Shown: piece after piece, positions 10,906 to 60,400 of the stretch
How the letters are laid out: every line of letters begins with the position of its first letter
Position numbering within the stretch: the stretch's first letter is position 1
DNA from: Lama guanicoe
Taxonomy: Eukaryota
Assembly (NCBI GenBank): GCA_013239625.1
Contig: MU053520.1
Span: 338,934 to 402,933, forward strand
Direction: 5' to 3'
Length of the DNA stretch: 64,000 bases
Made by a program: the position numbers and the translations under genes
Notes under the pieces: generated by a model
Databases searched by the model: none
What the model was told of the DNA's origin: nothing
What the model saw: the letters and a program-made list of their open reading frames with translations, nothing else

Positions 10906-12841
10906 TGGTGTTGGGAAAGCAGAGATAGATGTGTAATAAGTAGAAATTTATACCAAATAAGAAAATTGGGAGAGTGGCCAAGATAATGGAGTAGAAGGAT
11001 ACTCTTAACTGCCCTCCCTCACAAATACACTAAGAGAGCTATCCATGGAACCACCTATTCACTTAGAACACTTGCTGAACTTTGATAGAACATAACCTTC
11101 TTCAAAAGACAAAATTCATCACAAATCTGGCAGGAGGGAAAAAAAAGAAGAAGAAAAAGGAAATTAGTGCAGGACTGGTCCCATGGGAGGGAGTGGCAAA
11201 GGAGGAATAGCACTCCTAGGCTGGGTCTCTCCCTCTTGAATAGAGAGGTCAGTGGGGACAGAAGGGGAACCTCTGAGGCTTCAGTCTGTGTAGAGCAGCC
11301 CTTGACCAACAGAGCTAAGTGAAACAGGCACAAAGTGCCCCTGCTACCCCCAGCCCTAGACATGAACCTGTGGGGATGGGATGGGACCAGCTGCCCCAGC
11401 TGGACAGAGGACTAGGGCCAACTTTGCAGAGGCAGCCTAGAGGACTGGAGTATACTGTGCTCCATGGTTGGGAGCGTATACAGAACAGAACAGCCTGGAT
11501 CCTCCATAAAAAAAAAAGAAAAGAAAAAGAAAAAAGAAAAGAGATAGAAAGCAACACTGCTGGTGGGTAATGGAGGGAGGTTTGCCTTAGCTTTTGTCTC
11601 CACAGACCCATGGCGCCATTGCTGATGTGTTCTCAGAAGAGAGACAGGGGTCAGCCATAGCCACAACATTTGCTGGTGCACAGCTCCCAAGAAGAGGTGG
11701 GATTGAAACCTGAATTCATACCCAAATGCTCTGCAACATCAAAGGCAAGGCTGAGATTTGTCCCCTCAGCCTCAGGCAGAGGGGACAATTCTGCTCCAAG
11801 GGCGCCTTTGTGGACTTGTGCCTCTAAGACAAATGAGGAAGGAGTGAAATTCTGCCACACAGTGGGGGCAAGGGCTAGTGTGCCCATTTTCTGTGAGCCC
11901 GCCTACCAGGCATGGACACAGCACTGAGAGCTGAACTGACCCGGAGTGCAACCCAAGGGCCTCTGGAATAATCCAGCAGAATTCACGCAGCATGTCAAGT
12001 GCAGGAGCAGCATTTGGTGCTGAGAAAGGTGCTAATCCAATAGTGCACCACAATCCAGGTATGTGACCCAGCAATCAGTGTAAGTGTACTGGTAGCTCTG
12101 AAGGCAGAGAACCTGAGGAAACCCAGAGCAACACACTGACATTCCCCCAGCTAAAGTGGAGACAAGGACAGAATCAACAAAGCATACATATATCACTCCA
12201 ACACTGCCTACTATATACCACAGCTCAGAAAGGGTTCTGGAAGCCTCCACTCCAACAAAAGGGGAATAGACCCAGCCCATGTCAGGGCTATGACAACCAC
12301 AGAACAAAAAGGAGGTCCCACTCAACAGCCAGGGCATGCTCTGGTCACCACAAGACAAGCCATACCACCAATTAAAGGGATAATACCCAACGCAAATGGA
12401 AGTAAGTCTTGGCAACCATCCATATTTAAAATAGACCTCATGACAAAATTATTAGGGGTGCACAGTCTACACAAAACATATTTTCCTTTTCCTAATTTTT
12501 ATTTTTTTAAATTTTTAATATTTTTCCTGTTTACCTTTTTAATTTTTTAAATTCTCTTTTTTAATTTTTAAATTTGTTTTATGTTTATTTTGTTACTTTT
12601 TATTATTTCTTCTTTTTTCTTTTTTTCTTTTTAAATTTTTTTAAAATTTAAATTTTTTGATTTTTTTTTTTTTTTTTAATTTATCATTTAAGCTTTTTAA
12701 CTTTTTTAATTAATTTATTTTATTTTATTATTATTTTCTTTTTTTTTTAGTTTTATTTCTGCAACCTCTTTAAAGAAACATTTTTAAGATCACATTAGAT
12801 AACTGATGCTACATAATCTATAGTGCCAGAGAGATGTAAGT

Positions 12842-13702
12842 AAAAGAAGAAGTGGAGAACCAGTATTAATTGAAAGAACAAGAGAAAACCCCTGAAAGAG
12901 TGATCAATGAAATAGACCTCGATAGTCTAATAGGAGTGATCAAAGCACTGAAGGAACTGGAAGAGATTATGACAAATACTTTAGAAAGGTAATTGAAACT
13001 CTAAAGAGGAGCCAATTAAAAACAGAAAACTGAATGGCAGAGATAAGAATCAAGCTAAAGGCTTTTGAAAGCAAACTAGATAATACAGAAGAATGAATAA
13101 GTGACTTGGAAGATGGAATAACAGAAGTCATCCAATCAGAACAGCAGAGAGAAAAGCAAGTAAATACCAATGAAAGCAATATAAGGGACTCATGGGATAA
13201 TATAAAGCACAGAAACCTATGCATAATAGGGGTCCCAGAAGGAGAAGAAACAGCAAAGGGGATTGAAAAGATATTTGAATAAATCATGATGGAAAAATTC
13301 TCAATCCTAAAGAAAGAATCATATACCCAGACACAGAAAGCACATAGGGGCCCCAACAAAAAGAACCCAATAAACCTACACCAAGACATATTATAATTCA
13401 GATGGCCAAAGTTAAAGATAAAGAAATGATTCTAAAGGCAACAAGAGAAAAATAAAGAGTTAATTATGAGGGAATCCCCATAAGGATTTCAGCTGATTTC
13501 TCCACACAAACACTGCTGGCCCAAAGGGAGAGGCAAAATATATCCAAAGTCCTGTATGAGAAAAGGCCACAACCTAGGATACTCTATCCAGTGAGATTAT
13601 CCTTTAGAGAAGGAGAGATAAAAATTTCAGAGAGGTGAAAACTAAAAGAATTCAGCAATACTAAACCTCTGTTAAAAGAAATATTGAAAGGAATATCTGA
13701 AT
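12842..13702 (+). pseudogene. L1 ORF1p remnant (coiled-coil/RRM/CTD) with stops and frameshifts
   Basis: ataataggggtcccagaaggagaagaa (IIGVPEGEE) and acaccaagacatattata (TPRHI). Start ATG lost relative to the copy at 58983. Ends approximate. Confidence 0.85.
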
Positions 13703-14116
13703 AGTAAAGAAGAAGGATGCTATAGAAAGGAGAAAACCATAACTGGAAAGGTGGTAACTACAATGAGTTGCAACAGAATAGACATGAAGATGTAAAAGAG
13801 GACATCAAAATCATTAAAGGTGGGAGAGGGGAGCAGGAAAATATAGATTGTTTTCTTTTGTGTTTTTTTTTGTTGTTTTTGTTATTTTTAGGATGTGCCT
13901 GAGCCTACATGACCATCAGTCTAAAGAAAACAGATAGAGTAATGGGTTAATATACTTAAAAAACAGGGTAACTGCAAGTCAAAAACATACAACAGAGTCA
14001 CAAAAACCTAAAAGAAACTGAAATAATACAAAAGAAAATTATCAAACCACAAAATGAGAAATAAAAAGAAAGGAACAAAGGAGAAATACCAAATCAACTG
14101 GAAAACTAAGTTCAAA

Positions 14117-17100
14117 ATGGCAATAAACAAACATCTAACAATAATTACCAAATGCCAATAGATTAAATGCCTTAATTAGAAGAAATAGACTAGCAGTTTC
14201 GATAATAAAACAAGAACCTAGAATGAGCTGTATACAAGAGACTCATCTTTGGGAAAAGGACACACATAGATTGAAAGTGAGAGGATGGAAAAAGATATTT
14301 CATGCAAATGGAAATGATAAGAAAGCAGGAGGAACAATATTGATTTCAGACAAAATAGACTTTAAAACAAAGGCCATAAAGAAAGGTAAAGAAGGACACT
14401 ATATAATGATTAAAGGAGCAATACAAGATGAGGTTATTAAATTCATTAACATATATGCACCCAATATAGGAGCACCTAAATACATAAAGCAAATGCTAAC
14501 AGATATAAAGGGAGAAAACGATGGGAACATAATCATAGTAGGAGACTTTAACACCCTATTAACATCACTGAAGAGATCTTCAAGACAGAAAATCAAGGTA
14601 ATGGAGAAAGTAAATGACACAATAGAACAGTTGGACTTGGTTGATATTATCACCGCAAAATAGAATATACATTATTTTCAAGTGCACATAGAACATTCTC
14701 TAGGATAGATCATGTACTCGGGCACAAAAGAAGCCTCAACAAATGTAAGAGGATAGAAATTATTTCAAGCATCTTTCCTAATTACAATGCCATGAAACTA
14801 GAACTCAAACACAGAAAAACAAAGGAGAAAAAATGACCGCATGGAGATTAAACAATGTGCTAATAAAGAACCAATGGGCCAATGATGAAATCAAAGAACT
14901 AATTAAAAAAGTACTTTGAGACAAATGACAATAAAAACACAATGACAAAAAAAATCTATGGGATGCAGAAAAACAGTCCTAAGAGGGAAGTTCATAGCAA
15001 TACAAGTCTTCTTCAAAAAAGAATAACAATCTCAAATAAACAACCTAAGCTACCAGCTAAAAGATTTAGATAAAGAAGAACAAATAAAACCAAAAGTCAG
15101 CAGAAGAAAGGCCATAATAAAGATCAGTGAAGAAATAAACAAAATAGAGATCAAAAAAATTTTAAAAATCAATCAAACCAAGAGTTGTTTTTTTGAAAGA
15201 ATAAACAAAATTGACAAGCATCTGGCCAGACACATCAAGAAGAAAAGAGAGAGAACACATATTAAATAAGAAAGGAAAACGGAGAAATTATAACCAATAT
15301 CACAGAAATAAAAAACATCATGAGAGAATATTATGAACAACTCAATGGAAACAAATTGGATAACCAAAAAGAAATGGACAAGTTTTTAGAAACATACAGC
15401 CCACCAAAACTGAATCAAGAAGAAATAGATCATTTTAACAGACCAATCACTAGATGTGAAATAGAATCAGCAATAATAAACCTCCCTGCAAACAAAAGTC
15501 CAGGACCAGATTGCTTCACTGGGGAATTCTATCAAACATACAAAGAAGAACTCATACTGACCCTTTGCAAACTCTTCCTAAAGACTGAAAAGGAGGGAAT
15601 ACTCCCAAACTCATTCTATGAAGCCACCATCACCCTGATACCAAACGAGACAAAGCTATTATCAAAAAAAAAATTGCAGGCCAATATCACTGATGAACAT
15701 AGATTCAAATATCCTCAACAAAATATTAACAAACAGAATCCAACAGCACATAAAAAAGATCATACACCATGATCAAGTTGGATTCATCTCAGGGACACAG
15801 GGATGGCTAAACATATGCAAACCAATCAATGTGATACACCACATCCACAAAAGAAATAACATAAACCACATGATCATCTCAACAGTTGCATAAAAAGCAT
15901 TTGATAAAATTCAACACACATTTATGACAAAAAAAAATCTTACCAAAGTGGGTATAGAGGGAACAGATCTCAACATAATAAAAGCTATTCATGACAAACC
16001 TACAGCCAGCATAGTACTCAGTGGTGAATAACTGAAAGCCTTCCCACTAAAATCTGCAACAAGACAAGGTTACCCACTCTCAACACTTTTATTCAGCACA
16101 GTCTTGGAAGTCCTAGCTACAACAATCAGGCAAGAAAAATAAATTAAAAGTGTCCAAATTGGAAAAGAAGAGGTAAAACTGTCACTATATGCAGATGACA
16201 TGATACTATATGTAGAAAACCAAAAAAACTCCACAAAAAACTGATAGAGCTAATATAAGAATCTGGTAGGATAGCCCGATACAAGATTAACATACAAAAA
16301 TATGTTGCATTTCTTTACATTAACAATGAATCAACAGGAAAAGGAAGAAAAGTAACAATCCCTTTTAAAATTGCATCCAAAACAATAAAATACTTAAGAA
16401 TAAATCTGACCAAGGAGATGAAAGACTTATACATGGAGAACTACAGAACATTTATGAAGGAAATAAAAGAAAACTTAAAGATATGGAAATATATTTCATG
16501 CTCTTGGGATTGGAAGAATCAATATTGTTAAATTGGCCATACTGCCCAAGACAATCTACAGTTTTAATGCAATCCCTATCAAATTATCCAAGACATTTTT
16601 TTAACGGAACTGGAACAAATGATCCTAAGATTTATATGACATCACAAAAGAACCAGAATTGCCAAAGGAATATTGAAGAAAAACAATGAATCTGGAGAAA
16701 TAAACCTCCCAGTCTTCAGACAACATTACAGAGCTACAGTAATCAAAACAGGATGGTATTGGCATAAAAACAGATGTGTATCAATGGAACAGAATAGAGA
16801 GCCCAGAAATAATTCCACAGACCTATGGTCAATTATTCTTTGACAAAGGAGGCAAGAATATACAATGGAGAAAAGACATTATCTTCAGCAAGTGGTGTTG
16901 AGAAAAGTGGGCAGTAGCATGTAAGTCAATGAAGTTAGAACACTTCCTCATTCTATACATAAAAATAAACTCAAAATGGCTTAAATTATTAAATATAAGA
17001 CAACACAATAAGTCTCCTAGAAGAAAACATGCAAGACATTCTCTGACATAAATCTTAGCAATGTTCTCCTAGGGCAGTCTACCCAAGCAATAGAAATAAA

Positions 17101-17905
17101 AGCAAAATTAAACAAATGGGACCTAATTAAGCTCATAAGCTTTTGCAGAGCAAAGGAAATCATAAATAAAACAAAACGACAACTTACAGAATGGTAGAAA
17201 ATATTTGCAAATAATATGACTGACAAAGGCTTAATTTCCAGTATATATAAACAGTCCATAGAACTTAATAACAAAACAAACAAACAAACAATCAACCCGA
17301 TCCAAAACTGGGCTGATGACCTAAACAAGAAATTCTTTAGTGAAGATATACAAATGGCCAATAAGCATATGAAAAAACAAAAGCTCAATGTCACTAATTA
17401 TCAGAGAAATGCAAATCAAAACTACAATAAAGTATCAACTGACACCAGTCAGAATGGCCATCATTCAAAAATCCATTAATGATAAATGCTGGAGAGGGTG
17501 TGGGGAAAAGGGAATCCTCTTACACTGCTGTGGGAATGCAGTTTGGTGCAGCCATTATGGAAATTCCTCTAAAAAGTGAAAAATAGACATACTATATGAT
17601 CCAGCAATCCCACACCTGGGTATATATCTGGATGGATCTCTAATGTGAAAAGATACATGTAGCCAAATGTTTATAGCAGCACTATTTGCAATAGCCAAGA
17701 CATAGAAGCAAACTAAATGTCCATTGACAGATGACTGGATAAAGAAGTTATGGTATATTTATACAGTAGAATATTACTCTGTCATAAAACGTATAAAATA
17801 ATGCTATTTGGAGCAGCATGTATGGACCTAGGGATTGTCATCCTAAGTGAAGTAAGCCAGAAAAAGAAAAGTACCACATGATATCACTCATATGTGGAAT
17901 CTGAA
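14117..17905 (+). pseudogene. L1 ORF2p remnant (APE endonuclease, reverse transcriptase, C-terminal domain)
   Basis: ATG at 14117. EN motifs CIQETH, NIYAPN and GDFNT (ORF 14223-14663); [21 protein letters not shown] at 16188-16199; LLHCCG near 17520. Many disruptions. Confidence 0.95.
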
Positions 17906-20072
17906 AAAAAAAAAAGGCGCTATGTACTCATCTACAAAAGAGAAACAGACTCACAGACTTAGTAGACAATCTTATGGTTACTGGGGAAAGGAGCTGGGAA
18001 GGAATAAATTTGGGAGTTTGAGATTTACAAATGTTAGCCACTATATAAAAATAGATTTTTTTAAAGTTTCTTCTGTATAGCATAGGGAACTATGTTCAAT
18101 ATCTTGTAATAACCTTTATTTGTTTTTAACTTTTTTTATTGAGTAATAGTCATTTTACAATGTTGTGACAAATTCCAGTGTAGAGCACAATTTTTCAGTT
18201 ATACATGAACATACATATATTCATTCACATTTTTTTCACTGTGAGCTACCACAAGATCTTGTATATATTTCCCTGTGCTATACAGTATAATCTTGTTTAT
18301 CTATTCTGCATATGACTGTCAGTATCTACAAATTTTGAAATCCCAGTCTGTCCCTTCCCATGCCTCTCCCCCTTGGCAACCACAAGTTTGTATTCTATGC
18401 CTATGAGTCTGTTCCTATTTGTATTTATGTTCTTTTTTTTTCCCTTAGATTCCACATATGAGTGATCTCATATGGTATTTTTCTCTCTCTTTCTGGCTTA
18501 TTTCACTTAGAATGACGTTCTCCAGGAACATCCATGTTGCTGCAAATGGTGGTATGTTGTCATTTTTTATAGCTGAATAGTATTCCATTGTATAAATATA
18601 TCACTTCTTCTTTATTCAGTCATCTGTTAATGGACATTTAGGCTGTTTCTATGTCTTGGCTGTTGTAACTAGTGCTTCTGTGAACATTGGGGTGCAGATG
18701 TCTTTTTGAAGTATGGTTCCTTCTGGAATTCCTGGGTCATATGGTAAGTCTATTCCTAGTCTTTTGAGGAATTGCCATACTGTTTACCACAGTGGCTACA
18801 CCAAACTGCATTCCTACCAGCAGTGTAGGAGGATTCCCTTTTCTCCACAGCCTATCCAGCATCTGTCATTTGTGGATTTTTGAATGATGGCCATTCTGAC
18901 TGGTGTGAGGTGATACCTCATTGTAGTTTTGATTTGCATTTCTCTGATAATTAGTGATATTGAGCATCTCTTTGTGTGCCTATTGATCATTTGTATTTCT
19001 TCCTTGGAGAATTGCTTCTTTCAGCCTTCTGCCCATTTTTGGATTGGGATTTTTTATTATTATTATTATTATGTCATATGAGCTGCTTATGTATTCTGGA
19101 GATCAAGCCTTTGTCAGTTTCATCATTTGCAAAAATTTTCTCCCATTCCGCAAGTTGTCATTTTGTTTTACTTATGGTTTCCTTTGCTGTGCAGAAGCTT
19201 GTAAATTTAATTAGGTCCCATTTATTTATTCTTGCTTTTTTTTCCTATTGCTTGGATAGACTGCCCTAGGAGAACATTTTTGAGATGTATGTCAGATAAT
19301 GTTTTGCCTATATTTTCTTCTAGGAGGTTTATTGTATCTTGTCTTATGTTTAAGTCTTTGATCCATTTTGAGTTTATTTTTATGTATGGTGTAAGGGAGT
19401 GTTCTAGCTTCATTGATTTACATGCTGCTGCCCAGTTTTCCCAACACCATTTGCTGAAGAGACTGTCTTTATTCCATTGTATATTCTTGCCTCCTTTGTG
19501 GAAGATGAGTTGACCAAAAGTTTGTGGATTCATTTCTGGGCTCTCTATTCTGATCCATTGGTCCATATGTCTGTTTTTGTACCAATACCATGCTGTGTTG
19601 ATTACTGTAGATCTATAGTATTGTCTGAAGTTTGGGAGAATTATTCCTCCAGCCTCTTTCTTTTTCATCAGTATTGCTTTGGCAATTCTAGGTCTTTTGT
19701 GGTTCCAAAAAAGTTTCATTATGGTTTGTTCTAGTTCTGTACCATTCTAGTTCTAATGCCATTTAGAGCAACATGTATGGACCTAGGGATCATCATTCTA
19801 AGTGAAGTAAGCCCTAAAAAGAAAAGTATCACATGATATCACTCATATGTGAAATCTAAAAACTAAAAGAAGACTATGAATTCATCTACAAAACAGAAAC
19901 AGACTCACAGATTTAGTAGACAAGCTTATGGCTACTGGGGAAAGGAGTTGGGAAGGAATAAATTTGGGAGTTTGAGATTTACAAGTGTTAGCCACTATAT
20001 AAAAATAGATTTTTAAAAATGTTTCTTCTGTATAGCACAGGAAACTATGTTCAATATCTTGTAATAACCTTT
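17799..20072 (+). repeat. ~320-bp direct repeat pair (17799-18117 and 19754-20072) flanking the nested L1
   Basis: Both copies run taatgc...ttgtaataaccttt and are colinear, roughly 90% identical by eye. Confidence 0.9.
18118..19740 (-). mobile_element. 5'-truncated younger LINE-1 inserted antisense into the host L1 3' UTR
   Basis: T-rich tail 18118-18138; 3' UTR of the same type as at 1612 and 40937; ORF2 C-terminus in ORF 19222-19719 ([10 protein letters not shown]...AWYWYKNRH...KWCWENW). Confidence 0.95.
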
Positions 20073-20436
20073 AATAAGAAAAAAATGAAAATGAATGAAT
20101 GTGTTTATATGCATGACTGGGACATTGTCTTATACACCAGTAATTGTCACATTGTAATTGAATGTACTTAAATTTAAAAATAAATAAATAAAAATAATTA
20201 AAAAAGAAAATTAGCACAAAATTAGGAAGGTGGTCCAGACCAAGCATAACTGGGTTAATTTGAATCAAAAAATTGGTTTAAGTGTAAAAAACCATAAGAA
20301 ATGCATTTTGATTATTGTATATAGACATCATGACTCAAGAGATTTCCAATTTAAAGTCTTCTGTCTTATCGTAGATAAAGTCTGGTTGGAACTATCTAAA
20401 GCACTGTACTTGGGACTATAGTATGTTTTATACTGA

Positions 20437-20888
20437 ATATATTCATTTCCTAGGGTTGCCATAACTAGTTATAACAAACTAATTGCCTTATAACAGCAGA
20501 GATTTATACTTTCACAATTCTAGGATGTAGAAGTCTAAAATCAAGGTGCTGGCAAGGCAGTCCTTCCTCCAGTGGCTGTAGTTAAATGCTTCCCAGCCCA
20601 TTCCATCTTGTGGATTTGTCAGCTAGCCTTGTCATTTCTGGGCTTGTATGTAGATGCATTACTGCAATTTGTGCCTTCACTTTTACATGACCTTCTCCTC
20701 TGTGCATTGTGCTCAAATTTCCTTCTTCTTATGAGGACATCAGTTATATTTGATTAAGGTTCACCCTAATCCAATATGACCTCATAATAGTATGATTACA
20801 TTTGCAAAGAATCTATTTCCAAAGAAAGTAACACTCAGTTTCTGATGAAAATTGATTTGTGGAGGGGGCACTATTTAACTTAATGTAG
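20437..20888 (-). mobile_element. MaLR solo LTR (MLT1B/C-like)
   Basis: ttcctagggttgccataac...agaagtctaaaatcaaggtgctggcaagg...ttcttatgaggacatcagt...atttgcaaagaatctatttccaaa. Confidence 0.8.
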
Positions 20889-22842
20889 CTGGTATTCTAA
20901 TGAGAAATATGCAAATACATATGACTGATGAATCACTTATACACTTTTTTCTCTGTAAAATGTAATTTACTAACACACCTTATATATCAGAAAATTTGTG
21001 GCAGTATAGTGATTTTATTAACACTATTCAAGAGATAAGGATATGACAGTTACTTTATGTTGGGAGATAAAATTTGTCTCTATAACTTTGTCACATTGTT
21101 GTAAGGATCTTATAAGTTTTAGCAATAATTACTTCATTATCTTTGTATTTGCATTCAATAAGCCATCATGTGCAAGTTGTAGGTTAGAAATAAAGAAAGT
21201 TTAGCCTGATTACAAGGCTGCTACATCTTGTTCTTGTGGAAGAGAGATAAACAATCTTCATAACAAGGATAAGCTAACAACAATAACAAAAAAAAATTTT
21301 CTATCAGCAGGGCTTATTCTTGCTTTTTACATGATAAATAAAATATACTAGATTATGTATGAGGTTTCAAAATAACATGACTAGCTATAATTAACTCACT
21401 AATTAGCAAGTGAATTCACCACTTTCACAGGTTAGAGGACAATAGCAAATTACAGTGAGTCTGCTATACTAGATAAATGATGCAGGCTTAATAAATACTT
21501 AACATAAAATAAATTTAAATATAATATAGGATCGTTCTTTCTAGTGAGGAATGATAGGAGGTGGAGGATAAAGTATATTTTAATGAAATATTTGAGATTT
21601 TCAGAAAAAATTCTATATAAAATTTAAAGTTTCGTATTATAAATATACCATATATGGCCAAAGGCTAAGAATTAAAGGATAATTAAGAGCAACAATTACA
21701 AAATTCAAGCCTTAGACAAACCTTAGACAGTGTAAATCAATACATCTTGAGCTAGCACCATACATGGATTTGAATGTGCAATTTTTGCCTAATATTAAAA
21801 TTTTCAAAAAGGTACAACACAGCAAAATGGAATTGTCACCCTTAAATCAATGGGATGAATCATTATATTTGAATATATATTGGCTCTGGGTGATAGAAAA
21901 TTAAAAATTATCTACAATTTCACTGAGAGGATATTGTAGATTAGAAACTTTAACAAAATAACCTATGAATAAATAAAGCAAATTCTGACAGAATTAAAAA
22001 GAGAGACTAAATTTTAGTGCATTCTATTCAGTGATTGATAGAAGAAACAAACATAAGAATTTATAAGACAGAGATTTCTTCTCATAATGGAGGAGGAAGA
22101 AAGTGCACCACTGCACAAACCCTGGCAGATAACAAATACAAAAAGTAAATATTTTAAAATAAATAATTTCTTGAAAGATAGGAATGCATTCAATCGCTGA
22201 CAGAAATCAAAGGAGAGTTTAGTCTTAAAAAATTGCAACCACAAAGGATAAGAATTGTGAATTTGTCACTTGCTAATCCAACAGTCTAGCCCAACCTCCA
22301 TGGTCATAGCTGTGAAAAACTATGGAAGGCAAAACTTACAGCCTATTTTGGGTACAGATAATTGAAATGAAGTAGTCAGAACCAGGAGACAATTGAAAAT
22401 GTAAAAGGGAAACCCTGGCAGCACAATTATACCACAAATGAGACCTACATTTGAGCACAAAATGCCCAAATTCCTGTCTGACAAGTTAAAATAATGTGTA
22501 CAAGGGGACCAAGAGGCATGGCAGAAAAGTAGGTAGAAATCAGAAATGTCTCCTAAAGACAGAAGGAGTTACAGGTACCAGATATGAAAGTCTGATGTTT
22601 TCCTTCCCTGAGCGTATTCCCCAACCGTGCTCAGTACAGGCAGCAGGGTGAACCCCTGCTTAGATCCCTGGCACAGAGAAGATCCACAGGGAACCCAGAT
22701 TAAAAAGTTCAAGAACAGAATAAATTTATCAGCAGCTGCATATCAAGGAAAAGACAGTTTGCAATTTGAGCCAGATATGTTAACTGCCTACTATTACAAA
22801 ACCAAGAATCCACAGACTACAACAGAATCAAGAACCACTCTA

Positions 22843-38168: not shown

Positions 38169-40925
38169 ACTCCTCATCCATTCATCTATAGATGAATACT
38201 TAGATTGCCTTTATAGCTCGACTATTGTAAATAATGCTGCAATATACTTAAGGATGCATATATCTTTCTGAAGTAGTGTTTTTGCTTTCTTTGGAAAAAT
38301 ATACAAGTTCATATAGTAGTTCTATTTTTATTTTTGAGGGACCTCCATACTGTTTTCCACAGAGGCTGCCCCAATTTACATTCCCACCAATAGTGCACAA
38401 GGGATGAAGTTTCTATTTCTTCCACATCCTTGTCGCACTTGTTATTGTTGTCTTTCTGAGCATAACCTTCTAGATAGGTCTGAGGTGATATTTCATTGTG
38501 GTTTCATTTGCATTTCCCTGATGATTTGTGGTGTTGAATATTTATTTATGTATCTGTTGGCCATCTGTATGTTTTCTTTGGAAAATTGTCTCTTCAGGTC
38601 CTCTACCCATTTTTTAAATCAGGCTGTTTTTGATATTGAGATGTATAAATTATTTTTATATTTTGGATATTAACCCATTATAAGATATAGCCTTTGCAAA
38701 TGTCTTCTTATTCAATGGGCTGCCTTTGTGTTTTGCTTATAGTTTCCCTTACCATACAAAATATTTTAGGTTGATGTAATCCCATCTATTTATTTTATTT
38801 GCCTGAGAAGTCAGATTATAAAAATAACATACTACAAATATCCATGTCAAAGAGCATGCTGCCTCTTTTCTTCTAGAAGTTTTATGATTTTAGGACTTAC
38901 ATTTAAGTCTTTAAACCACTTTGAGTTTATTTTTGTATATGATGTAAGAGAGTAATCCAGTCTAATTCTTTTTAATGTTGATGTTTGGTTTCTCAACACC
39001 ATTTATTCAAGAAGTTGTCTTTTCCCCATTGTAAGTTCTTGCTTCCTTTGTTGTAGATTAATTGACCATGTAAGTGTGGGTTATTTCTGGGTTCTCTATT
39101 CTGTTCCATTGATCTAATGCCCATTTTTGTGCCAGTATCATATTGTTTTGTTTCATGTGGTTTTGTAATATACTTTAAAATCAGGAAACATGATACTTTC
39201 AGCTTTGTTCTTCTTTCTCAAGATTGCTTTGGCTATTTAGGTAGTTTGTGTTTTCATACAAACTTTTGAATTATTTTTTATAGTTCTGTGAAAAAAGCCA
39301 TTAGTATTTTGATAAGTGTGGCAATGAATCTACAGATTTCCTTGGGTAGTATGATTATTTTAACAATTTTAATTTTTTCAATCCATAAGCATGTTATCTT
39401 TCCACTTGATCTTGACATCTTCAGTTTCTTTAGTCAATGTCTTATAGTTTTTTCTTAGTACAGGTCTTTTAGCTTTTTGGTTAGATTTATTCCCAGGTAT
39501 TTTATTCTTTTTCATTCTATTGTAAATATGATAGTTCATTATTAGTAAATAGAAACACAACAGGTTTCTGTATATTAATTTTGTATCCTGCAACTTTATT
39601 AAATTCATTCATGGTTTCTAATTTTTTTTTGGCATCTTTTGGCTTTTCTATACATAGTATCATGTAACCTGCAGTTGGTGACAGTTTTACTTCTTTCTTT
39701 ACAATTGAATACCTTCTATTTCTTTTTCTCATCTGATTTATTTGGGTAGGATTTCCATCCCTGTTTTAAAAGTGGTAAGAGTGGGAATCCTTTTCTTGAA
39801 CTTAGAGGAAAAAGCTTTCTATTTTTCATTTTTGAGTATGATAATGGCTGTAGATTTGTCACATATGGCTTTTATTATGTTGCGATATAGTTCCTCTATA
39901 TACATTTTGTTAAGGATTTTTATCATAAATTGATATTGAATTTTGTTGAAAGTCTTTTTTTTCTGCTTCTATTCAGATGATATAATTTGTATTCTTCAGT
40001 GTGTTAATGTGATATATTACACTGATTTATGGAGATAAACCAGGCTTACATCTCTGGGATAAATCCCACTTGATCATGGTGTGAATGATCCCTTTAATGT
40101 ACCATTGAATTCTGTTTACTAGTATTTTTTTGAGGATGTTTGCATTTATGTTCATCAGGGGCATTAGCCTGTAATTTTCTTTTTTGTGGTGACTTTGTCT
40201 AGTTTTGGTATCAGGGTGATGATGATATTCTAGAATGACTTTGAGAGTATTATGTTCTATTCAATTTGTGGGAATAATTTGAGAATTATCAGTGTTAATT
40301 CTTCTTTAAATGTTTTGTAGAATTAACCTGTGAAGCCATCTAATCACAGAATTTTGATTATTTAAGTTGACAATCTCTTAAGTTTAAACACATTCTAACA
40401 ATCCTGCATTCTTTACACCCATCCCCACTTTTAATGTTTTTTACATCATATTTTACATCTTTTTCTTTGATGTACCCCTTAACTATTTATTATGAACATA
40501 AATGATTTTACTACTTTTGTTTTTTAATCTTCCTAATTGCTTTATAAGTGGACAATCTACTACCTTTATTGTATATTTGTCTCACTTGCCAATGAGATTT
40601 TTCTTTCATAATTGTTATATTTCTATTTGTAATTTTTTCTGATAAGAGAATTCCCTTTAAAATGGTTTTCAAGTGGGTTGAGTGGTGTTGAACTCTTTTA
40701 GCTTTTGCTTGTCTGTAAAAGTTCTTACTTCTTCAAATTTGAATGACAGCTTTACAGTGTACAGTATCCTTGTGTTTGTTTTTTCCCCCTTTCATTACTT
40801 TAAATGCATTTTTTCACTACCTTCTGGCCTGCAAAGTTTCTGCTGAAAAGTCAACTAAGTCTTATATAGGAGTTACTTATATGTAACCAGCTCCTTTCCC
40901 ATTGCTGCTTTTAAGTTCTATTTTT

Positions 40926-43207
40926 TTAATTTTTATATTGAGTTAGAGTCATTTTACAATGTTGTGTCAAATTCCAGTGTAATGCACAATTTTTCAGTAA
41001 TACATGAAAATATATATATTCATTGTCACATTTTTTCCCTGTGAGCTACCATAAGATCTTGTATATAATTCCCTGTGCTATACAGTATAATCTTGATTAT
41101 CTGTTCTACATTTTGAAATCCCAATCTGTTCCTTCCCACCCCCTGCCCCCTTGGCAACCACAAGTTTGTATTCTATATCTATGAGTCTGTTTCTATTTTA
41201 TATTTATATTTTGGTATTTTTAGATTCCACATATGAGTGATCTCATATGATATTTTTCTTTTTCTTTCTGGCTTACTTCACTTAGAATGACATTCTCTTG
41301 GAGCATCCATGTTGCTGCAAATCGCATTAAGTTATCAGTTTTTATGGCTGAATAGTATTCCATTGTATAAATATACCACTTCTTCCTTATCTAGTCATCT
41401 GTTGATGGACATTGAGGCTGTTTCCATGTCTTGGCTATTGTAAATAGTGCTGATATGAACATTGGGGTGCAGATGTCTTTTTGAAGTAGGGTTCCTTCTG
41501 GATATTGCCCAGAAGTGTGACCTGGGTCATATGGTAAGTCTATTCCTAGTCTTTTGAGGAATCTCCACACTGTTTTCCATAATGGCTGCACCAAACTGCA
41601 TTCCCACCAGCAGTGTAGGAGGGTTCCCCTTTCTCCACAGCCTCTCCAGCATTTGTCATTTTTGGATTTTTTAATGACGGCCATTCTGACTGGTGTGAGG
41701 TGATAAGTAGTTTTGATTTGCATTTATCTGATAGTTAATGATATTGAGCATTTTTTCATAAGCCTATTGAGCATTTGTATGTCTTCCTTGGAGAATTGCT
41801 TGTTTAGGTCTTCTGTACATTTTTGGATTGGGTTGTTTGTTTTTTCTTATTAAGTCATATGAGCTGCTTATATATTCTGGAGATCAAGCCTTTGTTGGTT
41901 TCATTTGCAAAAATTTTCTCCCATTCCGCAGGTTGTCATTTTGTTTCGCTTATGGTTTTCTTTGCTGTGCAGAAGCTCATAAGTTTCATTAGGTCGCATC
42001 TGTTTATTCTTGCTTTTATTTCTATTGCTTGGGTAGACTGTCCTAGGAGAACATTTTTGACATGTATGCCAGGTAATGTTTTGCCTGTATTTTCTTCTAG
42101 GAGGTTTATTGTATCTTGTCTTATGTTTAAGTCTTTGATCCATTTTGAGTTTAGTTTTGTATGTGGTGTAAGGGAGTCTTCTAGCTTCATTGCTTTACAC
42201 GCTGCTGTCCAGTTTTCCCAACACCATTTGCAGAAGAGACTGTCTTTATTCCATTGTATATTCTTGCCTCCTTTGTCGAAGATTAGTTGACCAAAAGTTT
42301 GTGGGTTCATTTCTGGGCTCTCTATTCTGTTCCATTGGTCTATATGTCAAAGCATTTGATAAAATTCAACACACATTTATGATAAAAACTCTCACCAAAG
42401 TGGATATAGAGGGAACATTTCTCAACATAATAAAAGCTATATATGACAAACCTACAGCCAGCATAGGACTCAACAGTAAAAAACTCAAAAGCTTCCCACT
42501 AAATTCTGGGACAAGACAAGGATGCCCACTATCACCACTCCTATTCAACATAGTCTTGGAAGTCCTAGCCACAGCAATCAGGCAAGAGAGCGAAACAAAA
42601 GGGATCCAAATTGGAAAGGAAGGGGTAAAATTTCACTATATGCTGATGACATGTTACTATATATAGAAAACCCTAAAAGGTCCACACAAAAACTAGAGCT
42701 GATTGAAGAATTCAGCAATCTAGTAGGTTATAAGATTAATGTTCAAAAATCAGTTGCATTTTTTTACACTAACAATGAATCAACAGAAAAAGAAAGTAAA
42801 GAAACAATCCCCTTTAAAATAGCACCCAAAGAAATAAAATACCTAGGAATAAATCAAACCAAGGAGGTGAAAGAATTGTACACAGAAAACTATAAACCAC
42901 TGATGAAGGAAATTAAAGAAGATTTTAAAAAATGGAAAGATATCCCATGCTTCTGGATTGGAAGAATCAATATTTTTAAAATGGTCACACTGCCCAAGGC
43001 AATCTACAGACTTAATGCAATCCCTATCAAATTACCAAGGACATATTTCATAGAACTAGAACAAATCATAATAAAATTTATATGGAACCATCAAAGACCT
43101 AGAATTGCCAAAGCATTACTGAAGAAAAAGAAAGAGCTGGAGGAATAACTCTCCCAGACTTCAGACAATACTATAGAGCTTCATTAATCAAGACAGCATG
43201 GAATTGG
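40926..43207 (-). mobile_element. 5'-inverted younger LINE-1 (twin priming) nested in the older L1 ORF1
   Basis: Minus segment 40926-42347; plus segment 42348-43209 with RT motifs [19 protein letters not shown] and YADD. TSD ttaag(a)ttctattttt at 40911-40925 and 43208-43223. Confidence 0.93.
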
Positions 43208-44731
43208 TTAAGATTCTATTTTTATATTTCATTTTGTTCACTTTAATTATAATTGCCTTGGTGTGAATCTCTTTGGGTTCATCTGGTTTGAAATTTTCTG
43301 TGTTTCTGTACCTGTCTATTTCCTTTCTCAGTTTCAGGCAGTTTTAAACTATTATTTTTTCAAGTGTTTTATCTGACTCTTCTTCTGGAACCTCTATTAT
43401 GCCAATGCTAGTACTCTTGATGTTGTCTGAGAGATGTCTTAAACTATCCTCAGTTTTTCAAATTCTCTTTTCTCTTTTTTATTTTGTTTTGGGTGATTTT
43501 CATTACTTTGTCTTCGGGTCCACTGATACATTCCTCTGTATCATTCAATCTACTGTCAATTCCTTCTAGAGTACTTATTATTTCAATTATTGTATTCAGC
43601 CTTGTTTTGTCTTCTTTTGCGTTTTCTAACTCTTTATTAATCTTCTCATTGTGTTCATCCATTCTTCTCCTGAGTTCATTAAGCATCTTTATAATCATTA
43701 CCTTGAACTTTCTTTTGGTTACATTACTTATAACCTCTTCACTTAGTTCTTTTCTAGGGTTTTATCTTATCCTTCATCTGTATCATAGTCCTCTGTCTCC
43801 TTCTTCTGCTTATTTTTCTGTTTTTATATCTATGTATTACTTCAGATATGTCTCCCCACCTTGAGGAAGTGGCCCTGCATAGGAGATAAGCACACTCAGC
43901 AGCATACTCCCAGCTGGTCACCAGAAATATATGCTCTAGGAATGTCCTCCTGTGTGGACCCTTCAGTTGTGACAGGGTTGACTGCAAATGCACTGGAAGT
44001 TGGTCTGGCCCCAGGATTGTTAGTTGCCAGGCCCTGCCTCCTGCAGAGGCTGTAGTTGTGCTGGTTGTCAGGGAAAGATCTTTGTATAGGTGGTCATGAA
44101 GTCCAAGGAGTCTCAGATATGGTGTCATCTTGCTGTTGGGTGAGGTTATGTCTGACGGGGCCCTGAACTAGTGCTACCCCAATGGTGTGTGAGGCTAGGT
44201 CCTAGCATGTCTGGCTGTGGGCCCAGTGAGGCCAAGGGATGATGTCAACCTACTGATGGGCAGGGCTGAGCCTTGGGGATGCCTTGCCATTGGGCCCAAA
44301 GAAGTTTGAGGCTAGTGCCAGCCTGCTGGTGGGCAGGACCTTTCCCTGAGCCTATTGGTTGGTTGTGACATTTCTTGGGGTAGCTGGTGACAAGGCCCAG
44401 AGGGTTTGGGTCTGCTGCCAGCCCACTGTTGTATGGAGTTAGGTCCTCAGACTACTGGTTACACAACTTGTTCACACATGGAAGACTTTAGGCATTCTCT
44501 TTTTTCCTATTGTTCTAAAATTTCACTATGATGTGGTTTCTTTCTCATTTACTATTTTTTGCAGTGATAATTTTCAATATGGAAACTCATAATTCAGTTC
44601 TGGGAATTGTGATTTTTTATCTTTCTTAAATTCATCCCCTGTGTTTAATCCTCTTTGTAGTTCTGAAATTACTGTTTAGTGAATTTTGACTGCATTAAAT
44701 CTTTAATTTTCTTTTCTCTCCTATGTCCATC

Positions 44732-48249: not shown

Positions 48250-49384
48250 TTATATTTATTTTTATCAAAGTATAGTCAGTTTATACAATGTGTCAATTTC
48301 TGGTATACAGCACAATACTTCAGTCATATAGGAACATAACCTATATTTGTTTTCATATGTTTTTTAACCATAAGTTACTACAAGATATTGAATACAGTTC
48401 CCTGTACTATATGGTATAAACTTGTTGTTTATCTATTTTATATATATATTAGCTAGTATCTGCAAATCTCAAAATCCCAATTTACTCCTTCCCACCCTCT
48501 CCTCTGAACTGGTAACCATGTCTGTTTTTTATATAAGTTCATTTGTCTTTTTTTAAATTCCATATGTAAGTGATATAATATGGTATTTTTCTTTCTCTTT
48601 CTGGCTTACTTCACTTAGAATGATGAACTCCAGATCCATCCATGTTGCTGCAGATGGTATTATTTTATTACTTTTATGGCTAATTAATATTCCATTGTAT
48701 AAATATACCACAACCACAATTTCTTGATCCAGTCATATGTCCATGGACATTTAGATTGTTTCCATGTCTTGGCTATTGTAAAGAGTGTTGCTATGAACAT
48801 TGGGGTGCAAGTATCTTTTTGAATTAAGGTTCACTCTGGATATATGTCCAGGAGTGGGCTTGCTGGATCATATGCTAAGTCTATTATTAGTCTTTTGAAG
48901 AATCTCCATACTGTTGTCCATAATGGCTGCACCAAACTACATTCCCACCAACAGTGTAAGAGGGTTCCCTTTTCTTCACAGCCTCTCCAGCTTTTATTGA
49001 TTTTGCACTGTTGAATGATGTCCATTCTGATTGGTGTGAGGTGATGCAATCTACCCAAGCAATAGAAAAAAGGATAAATAGACAAATGGGACTTAATTAA
49101 ACTTATAAACTTTTACGCAGCAAAGGAAACAATAAGCAAAACAAAAAGACAACCTACAAAATGGGAGAAAATATTTGCAAAAGATGAGCCTGACAAGGGC
49201 TTAATTTCCAGAATATATAAAGAGCTCATACAACTTAATAAGAAAAAAAAAAGAACCCAGTCCAAAAGTGTGTAGAAGATCTAAACAAGCAATTCTCCAA
49301 TGAAGACATACAAATGGTCAATAAGTACATGAAAAAAATGCTCAGTATCACTAATTATCAGGGAAATGCAAATAAAAACTACAA
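48250..49384 (-). mobile_element. 5'-inverted LINE-1 (twin priming)
   Basis: Minus segment 48250-49045, plus segment 49046-49384. 15-bp TSD aatcatt(c/a)actattt at 48235-48249 and 49385-49399, followed by AA (TTT/AA endonuclease site). Confidence 0.92.
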
Positions 49385-57407: not shown

Positions 57408-60400
57408 AAGAGTCAGATTAAGATGTCTGGATAGAAGGATGCAGAGCTCATCTCCTCCCACATATATATCAAAAATAAATCTATATGATTCTCACAGAAT
57501 ACCTACTGAACTCTGACAGAAGTTCTCATACATTCAAAGTTATAAGAAAGATCTCCATGTAACTAGACAGGACAACAAAACAAACAAAGAATTGGGAAGG
57601 AACTGGCACTCCTTGGAGGGAGCTGTGAAAAGGGAAAGGTTCTTTCACCCTAGGAAGTGCCTTCACCAGTGGAGAGATCAGCCCAGACAGAAAGGGAGTT
57701 CCTGAAGCTTACAGGAGAGTGCAGCTGCTGGTTTGTGGCAGGCAGAACAGAGAGAGACCAGCACAGAAGATCCTTGTCATCTCTCCACACTCCCCAGCCC
57801 AAGATGCACACCTGTTGGTGCATGGCAGCTGAGTACTAAAACTGGGGCTTCGAGGACAGACCCAGAGAGAAGACTGGGGTTGGCACCTCAGCGACAGCCT
57901 GAAGGGACTGGAGTGTGGTACAGGCCACAACTGGGAGTGTGTGCAATGGCTTAACTTCCCTATATACTGTTAATGCATGCTAAGGTGGGGGTGTGGGATC
58001 CTACCATAGAAGCCTCTTTCTCAGCATGCTCACAGAGGCATGGCTGCACCATAGAAACCCCATTGTAACACACGTCCAAGAGGGGAGGGGCAGGGCCTTG
58101 CCCTAGCAGCCTCCTTCTCAGCAAGCCTGCAGCTGGTGTGACTCTGACTCTAAGAGCCCTGGGAGCAGGCAAGCACTGGTGAGGTCCCCCCAGGTGGAGG
58201 TGGAACTGAAATCTGAGCCTTGTCCCAGGCAGCTTTGGAAGATTTACCCAGCTAATGCCTTTGTAAGATCAGCATCTGTGAGACATTAGAGATAATTACT
58301 GTGTGTGGCTAGGGCAGGTCTGGTGTTAACAGCAGGCACACACAGGCAGAAGCAAGGCTGGGGTATGTGCTGACACCTTAGCTCCCACGGCGGTCCAGGT
58401 GCACGACTGCATCTGACTACACTGGGTGCTGGTGACTAACTTTAATGAATTTGCCCTTGTGACTTTGTGAGGACAGCTCCTGAGGGATCTTCAGACAGCC
58501 TACATTTCCAAGGCTGAGGTGGGGCTGAACACAGCACCAACAACAGTGTACTTTGTGAGCCTGCACAATGGGTGACAGACAACACCAAAGAGTGCACATC
58601 TCAGTAGACAACTCCTGCAGAGGAAAACTTCAGCAGCTCCTCTTCCAGTGGAAGGGCTCCAACCTCACACTGCAGCTCAGAAATGGATCTGGGGGCTCTA
58701 CTACAACTGGAAAGCAGACAAAGCACGACCACAGAGCAAAGAGGAGGCCCTGCTCAGCATCCAGCACAGACTCTGGTCACCACAGTCACACCCCCTTCAA
58801 GGGGATAGTAGCCTGCACGCATGGAGGAAGGATGTGGCAGACACCATACTAAAACATTCCTTGAAATAAAAATATTGGATGCACACAGCCTACACAGGAA
58901 CACTCCCACATAAAACTAGCTCTTCAAGACTACAGTGGATAACTGTTACTCCTAAATTCATAATCGGAGAAATCTAGGTAAAATGAAGAAGCAGAGGAAC
59001 TACTCCCAATTAAAAGAACAAGAGAAATTTCCTGAAAGAACAATTAAACTGACAACTCTAGTCTATGAGAACTTGGGTTAAAAAAGGGGATAATAAAAAT
59101 ACTGAAGGAATTAAGAAAGGCTTTTGATAGAAATGTAGATCACTGCAACAAGGAACTAGAAACTATAAAGAGGAACAAGGGAAATTAGAAAACTTCCTTG
59201 CCAAGATGATAGCTGAGCTAAAGGCAATAAATAACAAACAGAATGATGCAGAAGAATGAATAAGTGATCTGGAAGACAGAATTAGCAAAATTGCTCAATT
59301 AGAACAGCAGACAGAAAGCTTAAAAAAATAAAAGCGACAGAATAAGCAAAATTGCTCAATTAGAACAGCAGACAGAAAGCTTAAAAAAATAAAAGCAATA
59401 TAAGATTTTTGTGGGTAATATAAAGCATGCCAAACTATCCATAATAGGGGTCCCAGAAGAAGAAAGAGAAAATGGAATCAAAAACATACTTAAAGAAATT
59501 TGACTGAAATCTTCCCAAACCTAATGAAGGAAACAGACGTCCAGAAACAGGAAGCCAAGATGGTGCCAAACAAAATAAACACCAAGACACATTACAATTA
59601 CAAAGGCTATTGAAGATGAGACTATAAGGGCAGCAAGAGAGAAAGAGTTACTTACAAGGGAACAGCCATAAAGCTATAAGGTGTTTTCTCTACAAAAATG
59701 TGCAGCGCAGAGGGAATATCAAGATATATTCAGAGTCATGAAAGGGGAAAAGTTGCAACGTAAGATGCTCTACCCAGCAAGATTATCATTTAGAACAGGA
59801 GAGATAAAGAATTTCTCAGACAAGCAAAAACCAGAAGAATACAGCAGCTCTAAACCTATCCTTAAATAAACATTGAAAAGTCTTCTCTAAATAGACTAGA
59901 AGCAAAAATCTATAGAAAAGAGAAAGTCATAGTTGAAAATATGGTGTTAAATACAATGAATAGCAAAACAATAAACATGAAGATGAAAAAGGGGATATCA
60001 AAATCATAAAACGTGGAGGAGTGGAGTAAGAAAACCTTGGAAATGTTTTTAGAATGTGTTTGAACTTCTATGATGATCAGTCTAAAGCAATTAGATATAT
60101 TAATGGGCTAACATACTTGAAAAACAGGATAACCACAAGTCAAAAACATACAATGCAGTCACAAAAACCAAAAAAAGAGAGAACTCAAGCATAATACAAA
60201 ATAAAATTGATCAAATTACACAAGGAAAAACAAAAAGAAAAAGAAAGAAACGAAGAAGAAATACAAAATCAACTCAAAAACAAGATTCAAAAGGGCAATA
60301 AATACAAATCTATTAATACCTACCTTAAATTTCAATGGTCTAAGTGCTCCAGTCAAAAAATGTGAACTGGCAGATTGGATATGAAACAAGAGACTTCAAT

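Follow-up and report, generated by a model that had tools for sequence, protein, structure and literature searches.

The locus described here raises the question of how an L1 element lying antisense within another L1 came to be bounded on both sides by a direct repeat of about 320 bp. L1 target-site duplications (TSDs) usually measure 7-20 bp, and the L1 endonuclease nicks 5'-TTTT/AA-like sites. Our answer is that the two repeat copies are most probably a long TSD made at insertion; we assign a joint probability of about 0.8 to all routes that are coupled to the insertion. The likeliest individual route, which we rate somewhat above even odds, is a long TSD caused by a break of the second strand some 320 bases away. 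The window, i.e. the whole stretch of 64,000 nucleotides (64 kb) that was analysed, contains the following features of the locus:

10959..10967, plus strand: 5' copy of the host L1 TSD (AAGAAAATT), the longest string common to the bases before the host's start and those after its tail
10968..18117, plus strand: host L1 up to the insertion point, full length and decayed, with 5' UTR, ORF1, ORF2 (end about 17905) and 3' UTR
17799..18117, plus strand: copy 1 of the repeat, consisting of the last ~35 host ORF2 codons and ~210 bases of 3' UTR, with CCTTT at its end; perhaps one base longer
17864..17871, plus strand: frameshifting 4-bp deletion common to both copies, located by spacing comparison
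18118..19740, minus strand: nested L1, 5'-truncated, consisting of the last ~430 ORF2 codons and the 3' UTR
18118..18134, minus strand: decayed poly(A) tail of the nested L1, which begins at the end of copy 1
18135-18140, minus strand: AATAAA signal of the nested L1, read from the sequence
19741..19753, plus strand: filler at the 5' joint, 13 non-L1 bases
19754..20072, plus strand: copy 2 of the repeat, followed by AATAAG, with the nick site CTTT/AA rebuilt
20073..20203, plus strand: remaining host 3' UTR and A tail, present as a single copy and colinear with other L1 3' ends
20204..20212, plus strand: 3' copy of the host L1 TSD (AAGAAAATT), matching the 5' copy

The host L1 as a whole extends from 10968, which we take to be its 5' end according to the pattern known for mammalian L1, to 20203, and is interrupted by the nested L1 and the second repeat copy. 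Its 9-bp TSD, which is partly A-rich and constitutes moderate evidence taken alone, brackets the whole structure; the tail behind copy 2 is therefore the host's own. The last 130 bases of the host occur only once, after copy 2. If the insert and one copy are removed, the host target becomes continuous and is colinear with other L1 3' ends through tail and TSD. Thus copy 2 does run on into the remaining host 3' UTR, the tail and the host TSD, as the original prediction had it. Alternatively, copy 2 and the tail might stem from an independent 5'-truncated insertion of the host subfamily or have been copied from RNA of the host itself. In that case, the host's last 130 bases must have been lost exactly at the nested tail, and the newcomer must have landed exactly at the nested 5' end, without a TSD of its own and with its tail followed by the 5' TSD of the host. 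We regard this origin as very improbable; the evidence on sequence divergence that bears on it is given below.

BLAST aligned copy 1 (17799-18118) and copy 2 (19754-20073) with an identity of 90.65% over 321 columns including 2 gaps (E-value 7e-123), which bears out the two colinear copies of ~320 bp whose identity had been put at ~90% by eye. The repeat is 319 or 320 bp long, as an A following both copies leaves one base ambiguous. Within it, the copies differ by 28 substitutions and two 1-base gaps. One alignment started one base beyond the repeat and gave 29 differences; the statistical tests on the copies used this value (29/319), and it is this alignment that yielded 19 transitions, 10 transversions and a K2P distance of 0.098. 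The differences are unevenly spread (24/197 versus 5/122, p 0.016); we do not claim gene conversion between the copies, because eight of the uneven differences cluster in one A-run. The likeness of the copies has abrupt edges at both ends. In the 64-kb window, the next-best L1 3' ends reach 67-75% identity to copy 1 over at least 100 bases, and besides copy 1 and copy 2 no direct repeats of at least 85% identity involving the host L1 were found. The repeat bounds the insert on both sides, flush at the 3' joint and with the 13-base filler at the 5' joint.

That the structure is an assembly artefact is a next to negligible possibility. The joints are known from the assembled sequence; however, the copies are ~9% apart and both have private changes, which is far beyond allelic or sequencing differences. 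Moreover, 20 read runs with five organism labels contain 76-85% of the words sampled from 19600-21600, more than the 69% possible from the flank alone, where one run may be the source sample and word counts do not test the joints.

L1 homology spans the interval 18118-19740, in agreement with the antisense element that had been proposed there. Because the nested L1 is 77% identical to the host and 87-91% identical to three other in-window pieces, it is assigned to a different subfamily, and the seven best protein matches of its C-terminus are named Camelus or Vicugna. Judged by its sequence, the nested L1 belongs to a camelid subfamily other than the host's. Host and nested L1 also form an inverted repeat (16604-18107 and 19740-18251; 1.5 kb, 77% identity, spacer of about 140 bases), which persists undeleted.

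Several other origins of the extra copy were considered and rejected. A twin-primed (5'-inverted) L1 does not fit, as copy 2 consists of ORF2 end and 3' UTR, which are already present in the nested L1 and only ~69% like it. In a homology-driven chimeric L1, the nested 5' end, which corresponds to host position 16604 in antisense, would not be joined to host position 17799 in sense, as is the case here. In a 3' transduction, the extra sequence would follow the L1 3' end and close with a second tail, whereas here the additional copy adjoins the nested 5' end.

The 3' joint has the appearance of an L1 insertion site. A T-rich tract starts at 18118/18119 behind the AATAAA signal, and the poly(A) tail abuts one repeat copy; the CCTTT end of copy 1 followed by this tract confirms that copy 1 stops where the T tail begins. 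For an insertion in minus orientation, TPRT gives one copy that ends at the tail and another one that reads on into the target. At 18117/18118, the sequence CTTT/AA constitutes an endonuclease-type site, which is rebuilt at the end of copy 2; CTTT/a is tabulated among the cleavage sites in PMC5223499. TAAT occurs at either end of the repeat, a coincidence whose chance was estimated at a few percent and which also fits a microhomology-mediated tandem duplication that came first, the L1 landing later on its seam, readable as TTT/AA. There is, however, no short TSD before copy 2, and the L1 would have to strike one exact base. In addition, cleavage of both strands at T/A steps would by itself account for three of the four TAAT bases. 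We consider this order of events quite improbable.

The question whether the copies are sisters was addressed by means of the last ~35 ORF2 codons in the repeat, which are usable without subfamily members. At the site of the 4-bp deletion shared by both copies, the spacing is intact in four of the six other in-window elements, the other two having different indels, and it is kept in 119 of 120 protein matches (the best 120 of 951). Both copies also have a W to C and an E to G exchange and an altered second base of an A codon; among the same best 120 of 951 homologues, the residues A, W, and E are kept in 112, 119, and 115 cases. At 22 positions conserved in at least 90% of the matches, each copy has five changes, three of them at the same positions. 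At 23 conserved positions, the nested element has one change and its relative at 41 kb has two, none of which is common. A conserved-position row at 17625 was left out as an alignment artefact, as five elements show the same. Where older and younger elements agree (164 columns), the copies have 10 substitutions in common, along with two gap columns, and four and six private ones, whereas independent decay at 9% would produce only 0.66 shared substitutions. A six-sequence tree groups the copies (95/96); as it comprises no member of the same subfamily, its stem of 0.096 combines subfamily change with private change, and the tree is not used as a test.

These numbers have to be read with some care. 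The protein matches are biased against frameshifted copies, and the frameshift site is indel-prone, as seen in two other elements and in protein match P0119. The element at 61.2 kb has the W-to-C exchange as well and, over about 55 conserved positions, three changes in common with the host; one of these is probably due to CpG decay. In a one-sided control with only older elements and the host as reference, 15 non-synonymous changes in 176 codons were common to two independent copies of the nested subfamily; consequently, changes common to the repeat copies can be subfamily markers. The pS value of the host (0.21, 13/62 sites) exceeds its pN value (0.089, 24/271 sites), which points to a subfamily-specific component in the shared states. 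The sequence features that had been offered as markers of the copies are indeed absent from the other L1 3' ends, but they do not prove private mutations, as none of the six other aligned 3' ends (0/6) belongs to the host subfamily. Within the 64 kb no further copy of that subfamily was found, and an exact-pattern scan for such copies gave 0 matches in viral contigs, metagenome contigs, and prokaryote genomes.

If copy 2 had an independent origin, at most 29 differences would be observed with a probability of 6e-5 when branches of 8.9+8.9% are assumed, 0.006 for 8.9+5.7%, and 0.10 for 7+5%. Because of this range, divergence by itself is compatible with an independent copy, and the states shared by the copies could be subfamily markers. 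Such an origin is at odds with the lack of another host-subfamily copy in the window and with the frameshift, which an active master is unlikely to carry. Taken together, the comparisons support, without closing the case, a descent of both copies from one locus, and it is the geometry that carries most of the weight.

The terminal branches of the copies have lengths of 0.049 and 0.047, corresponding to a drift of ~4.8% per copy. Among bracketed columns, 44 of 761 (5.8%) deviate in the nested L1 and 68 of 754 (9.0%) in the host (p 0.018). The nested L1 is 7-10% away from its relatives, and a three-way comparison over 456 bases gave a nested branch of ~3.5%. The copies at ~4.8% each are thus to be compared with 3.5-5.8% for the nested L1, values which have wide intervals and which are in keeping with the original prediction of a copy divergence that matches the age of the insert. 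This fits a succession in which the host aged first and the duplication is as old as the insert. With a rate near 2e-9 per site per year, ~5% per copy amounts to roughly 20 million years; given its age, the locus is presumably fixed.

By one count of private changes, the copies appear slightly younger than the nested L1 (10/328 versus 44/761, p 0.067). This would agree with an ordinary short-TSD insertion in which, while the L1 was still polymorphic, a later break within the L1 was repaired off the empty allele from 320 bases upstream, causing both truncation and duplication. Repair of this kind would account for a copy 2 that reads through the pre-insertion site, and templated filler is typical of break repair too. 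Yet two events at one site would be needed within a brief polymorphism, and the insertion itself ordinarily yields 5' truncation and filler; we therefore rate the scenario as improbable.

The 5' joint provides further information. The original prediction gave no account of the filler at 19741-19753. Bases 19745-19754 are an exact 10-base repeat of 19729-19738, which is the nested L1's own end; a match of at least 10 bases to that flank occurred for 27 of 20,000 random 14-mers. Two shorter, 5-base matches of the filler, one to the start of copy 2 and an inverted one to the L1 end, do not exceed chance.

A long TSD through a distant second-strand break, the reading we prefer, could have arisen as follows. 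Nicking of the plus strand by the L1 endonuclease at CTTT/AA (18117/18118) would have provided a T end as primer for reverse transcription, which began on the poly(A) tail; the sequence displays both site and tail, and the nicking and priming event is deduced from established TPRT. Reverse transcription would have halted after ~1.6 kb, leading to the 5' truncation observed at 19740. The other strand would have been broken about 320 bases upstream, versus the usual 7-20, presumably at a weak CATT/A step on the minus strand, and the DNA between both breaks would have been unwound. The two free 3' ends may then have been joined by annealing and short templated synthesis, giving rise to the 13-base filler, for which the 10-base template is present. 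Filling in of both overhangs would have doubled the 320 bases, and the copies would then have drifted apart to the observed extent of ~5% each. The duplication is dead and neutral, a scar for which no function is apparent.

The proposal that a long TSD was made at insertion is supported by the geometry, the nick site, the host TSD, the shared disabling changes, and the matching ages. Its more specific part, a second-strand cleavage 320 bp away, fits the data but is by sequence indistinguishable from an insertion-coupled route without a far nick in the same duplex. In the latter, the cDNA end would have been joined to a sister-chromatid break, or would have invaded the duplex 320 bases upstream, followed by repair synthesis. 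The end product would be identical, and the filler could come from the cDNA end alone, if this slipped on the RNA and then jumped to the target. For tumours, a sister-chromatid route has been put forward to explain tandem duplications bounded by L1 (PMC7058536), where the cases described are of megabase scale. In a cell-culture series, duplications of hundreds of bases are common, and its authors explained them via a distal nick (PMC5223499). The second end is, moreover, located at a weak endonuclease-like TT/A step. We thus consider joining to a sister chromatid or strand invasion a real possibility, though a clearly less probable one than the distant break.

Long TSDs as such are a known class. 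For de novo L1 inserts in cultured cells, an L-TSD has been defined as one of more than 20 bp (PMC4245944), and TSDs of up to 323 bp were observed in HeLa cells (Gilbert et al. 2005, as cited in PMC8087252). TSDs longer than 100 bp accompanied less than 10% of the events in HeLa cells and, with lengths of up to kilobases, most of those in NER-deficient cells; the authors proposed a distal nick and expected a short life, as the copies can recombine (PMC5223499). Long TSDs also accompany 5'-truncated L1 in HeLa cells according to PMC2912911, which gathered TSDs of 5-30 bp only, noted that very long ones had been ascribed to peculiarities of HeLa cells, and left longer TSDs in vivo to further study. 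In most of 30,718 human insertions, TSDs of 1-31 bp were determined by exact match (bioRxiv 2024.04.18.590093), and the ordinary range is given as 10-31 bp in PMC10249811.

The cell-culture L-TSDs resemble this locus with respect to the 5'-truncated L1, the poly(A) tail, the typical nick site, and a repeat of hundreds of bases that abuts both ends. In contrast to those insertions of an engineered element into a cell line, the locus is endogenous, inherited, old (~9% between copies), and from a camelid. A de novo L1HS insertion in CDKL5 of a patient (PMC8087252), with a TSD of 119 bp, likewise combines an in vivo L1 insertion, a long TSD, and an endonuclease site. That insertion is probably mosaic, pathogenic, and 5'-chimeric, whereas the duplication studied here is longer, non-chimeric, and evidently fixed. 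In the tumour duplications of PMC7058536, an L1 also bridges the ends of a direct duplication with an endonuclease motif at the 3' breakpoint; these are somatic and of megabase scale, with an example of 22.6 Mb. The filler, too, has a counterpart: 5' extra nucleotides at LINE 5' joints are short and derived from the sequence beside the joint (PMC4245944). They were reported there mainly for zebrafish LINEs and for 13% of the human L1 inserts in HeLa-RC, and here the filler comes with a long TSD.

An old, fixed germline TSD of more than 100 bp was not found in the literature searched, which covers few subscription papers, so that this is weak evidence of absence. The locus is an old, evidently inherited example of the known long-TSD class; in this respect the original prediction of a rare giant TSD holds with regard to rarity, but the class had been described already. 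It is one datable counter-example to the expected short life, as the copies survived a divergence of ~5% each. One case shows that a long TSD occurs and can last, not how frequent it is. Genome surveys would miss long TSDs because they collect short, near-exact ones, such as 5-30 bp (PMC2912911) and 1-31 bp (bioRxiv 2024.04.18.590093). It is tempting to speculate, although we regard it as rather unlikely, that TSDs of hundreds of bases are a regular, under-counted outcome of germline L1 insertion, able to endure for millions of years and perhaps more frequent in camelids, and are no quirk of HeLa or repair-deficient cells. If this were true, nested L1s would offer a direct means to count long TSDs and to gauge the rate of their removal by recombination between the copies.

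The window is L1-dense and AT-rich (mostly 30-38% GC) and contains no fewer than eight L1 pieces, which belong to several subfamilies. Among these is a twin-primed L1 of the nested subfamily at 40916-43223, composed of a 3' piece (40923-42348, minus strand) and an inverted piece (42349-43207), with a TSD of at least 10 bp. A second twin-primed L1 (48235-49399) has its inverted piece at 49046-49384 and a 15-bp TSD with one mismatch. In a third 5'-inverted L1 (1483-2138), only about 65 bases of 3' end are combined with an inverted ORF2 piece of 460 bases that derives from far upstream; its TSD is ~13-15 bp long, and a perfect (TCTT)24 array has grown from its tail. At 59275-59396, a 61-bp tandem duplication with 98% matches lies within the ORF1 region of another L1 and is far younger than that L1.
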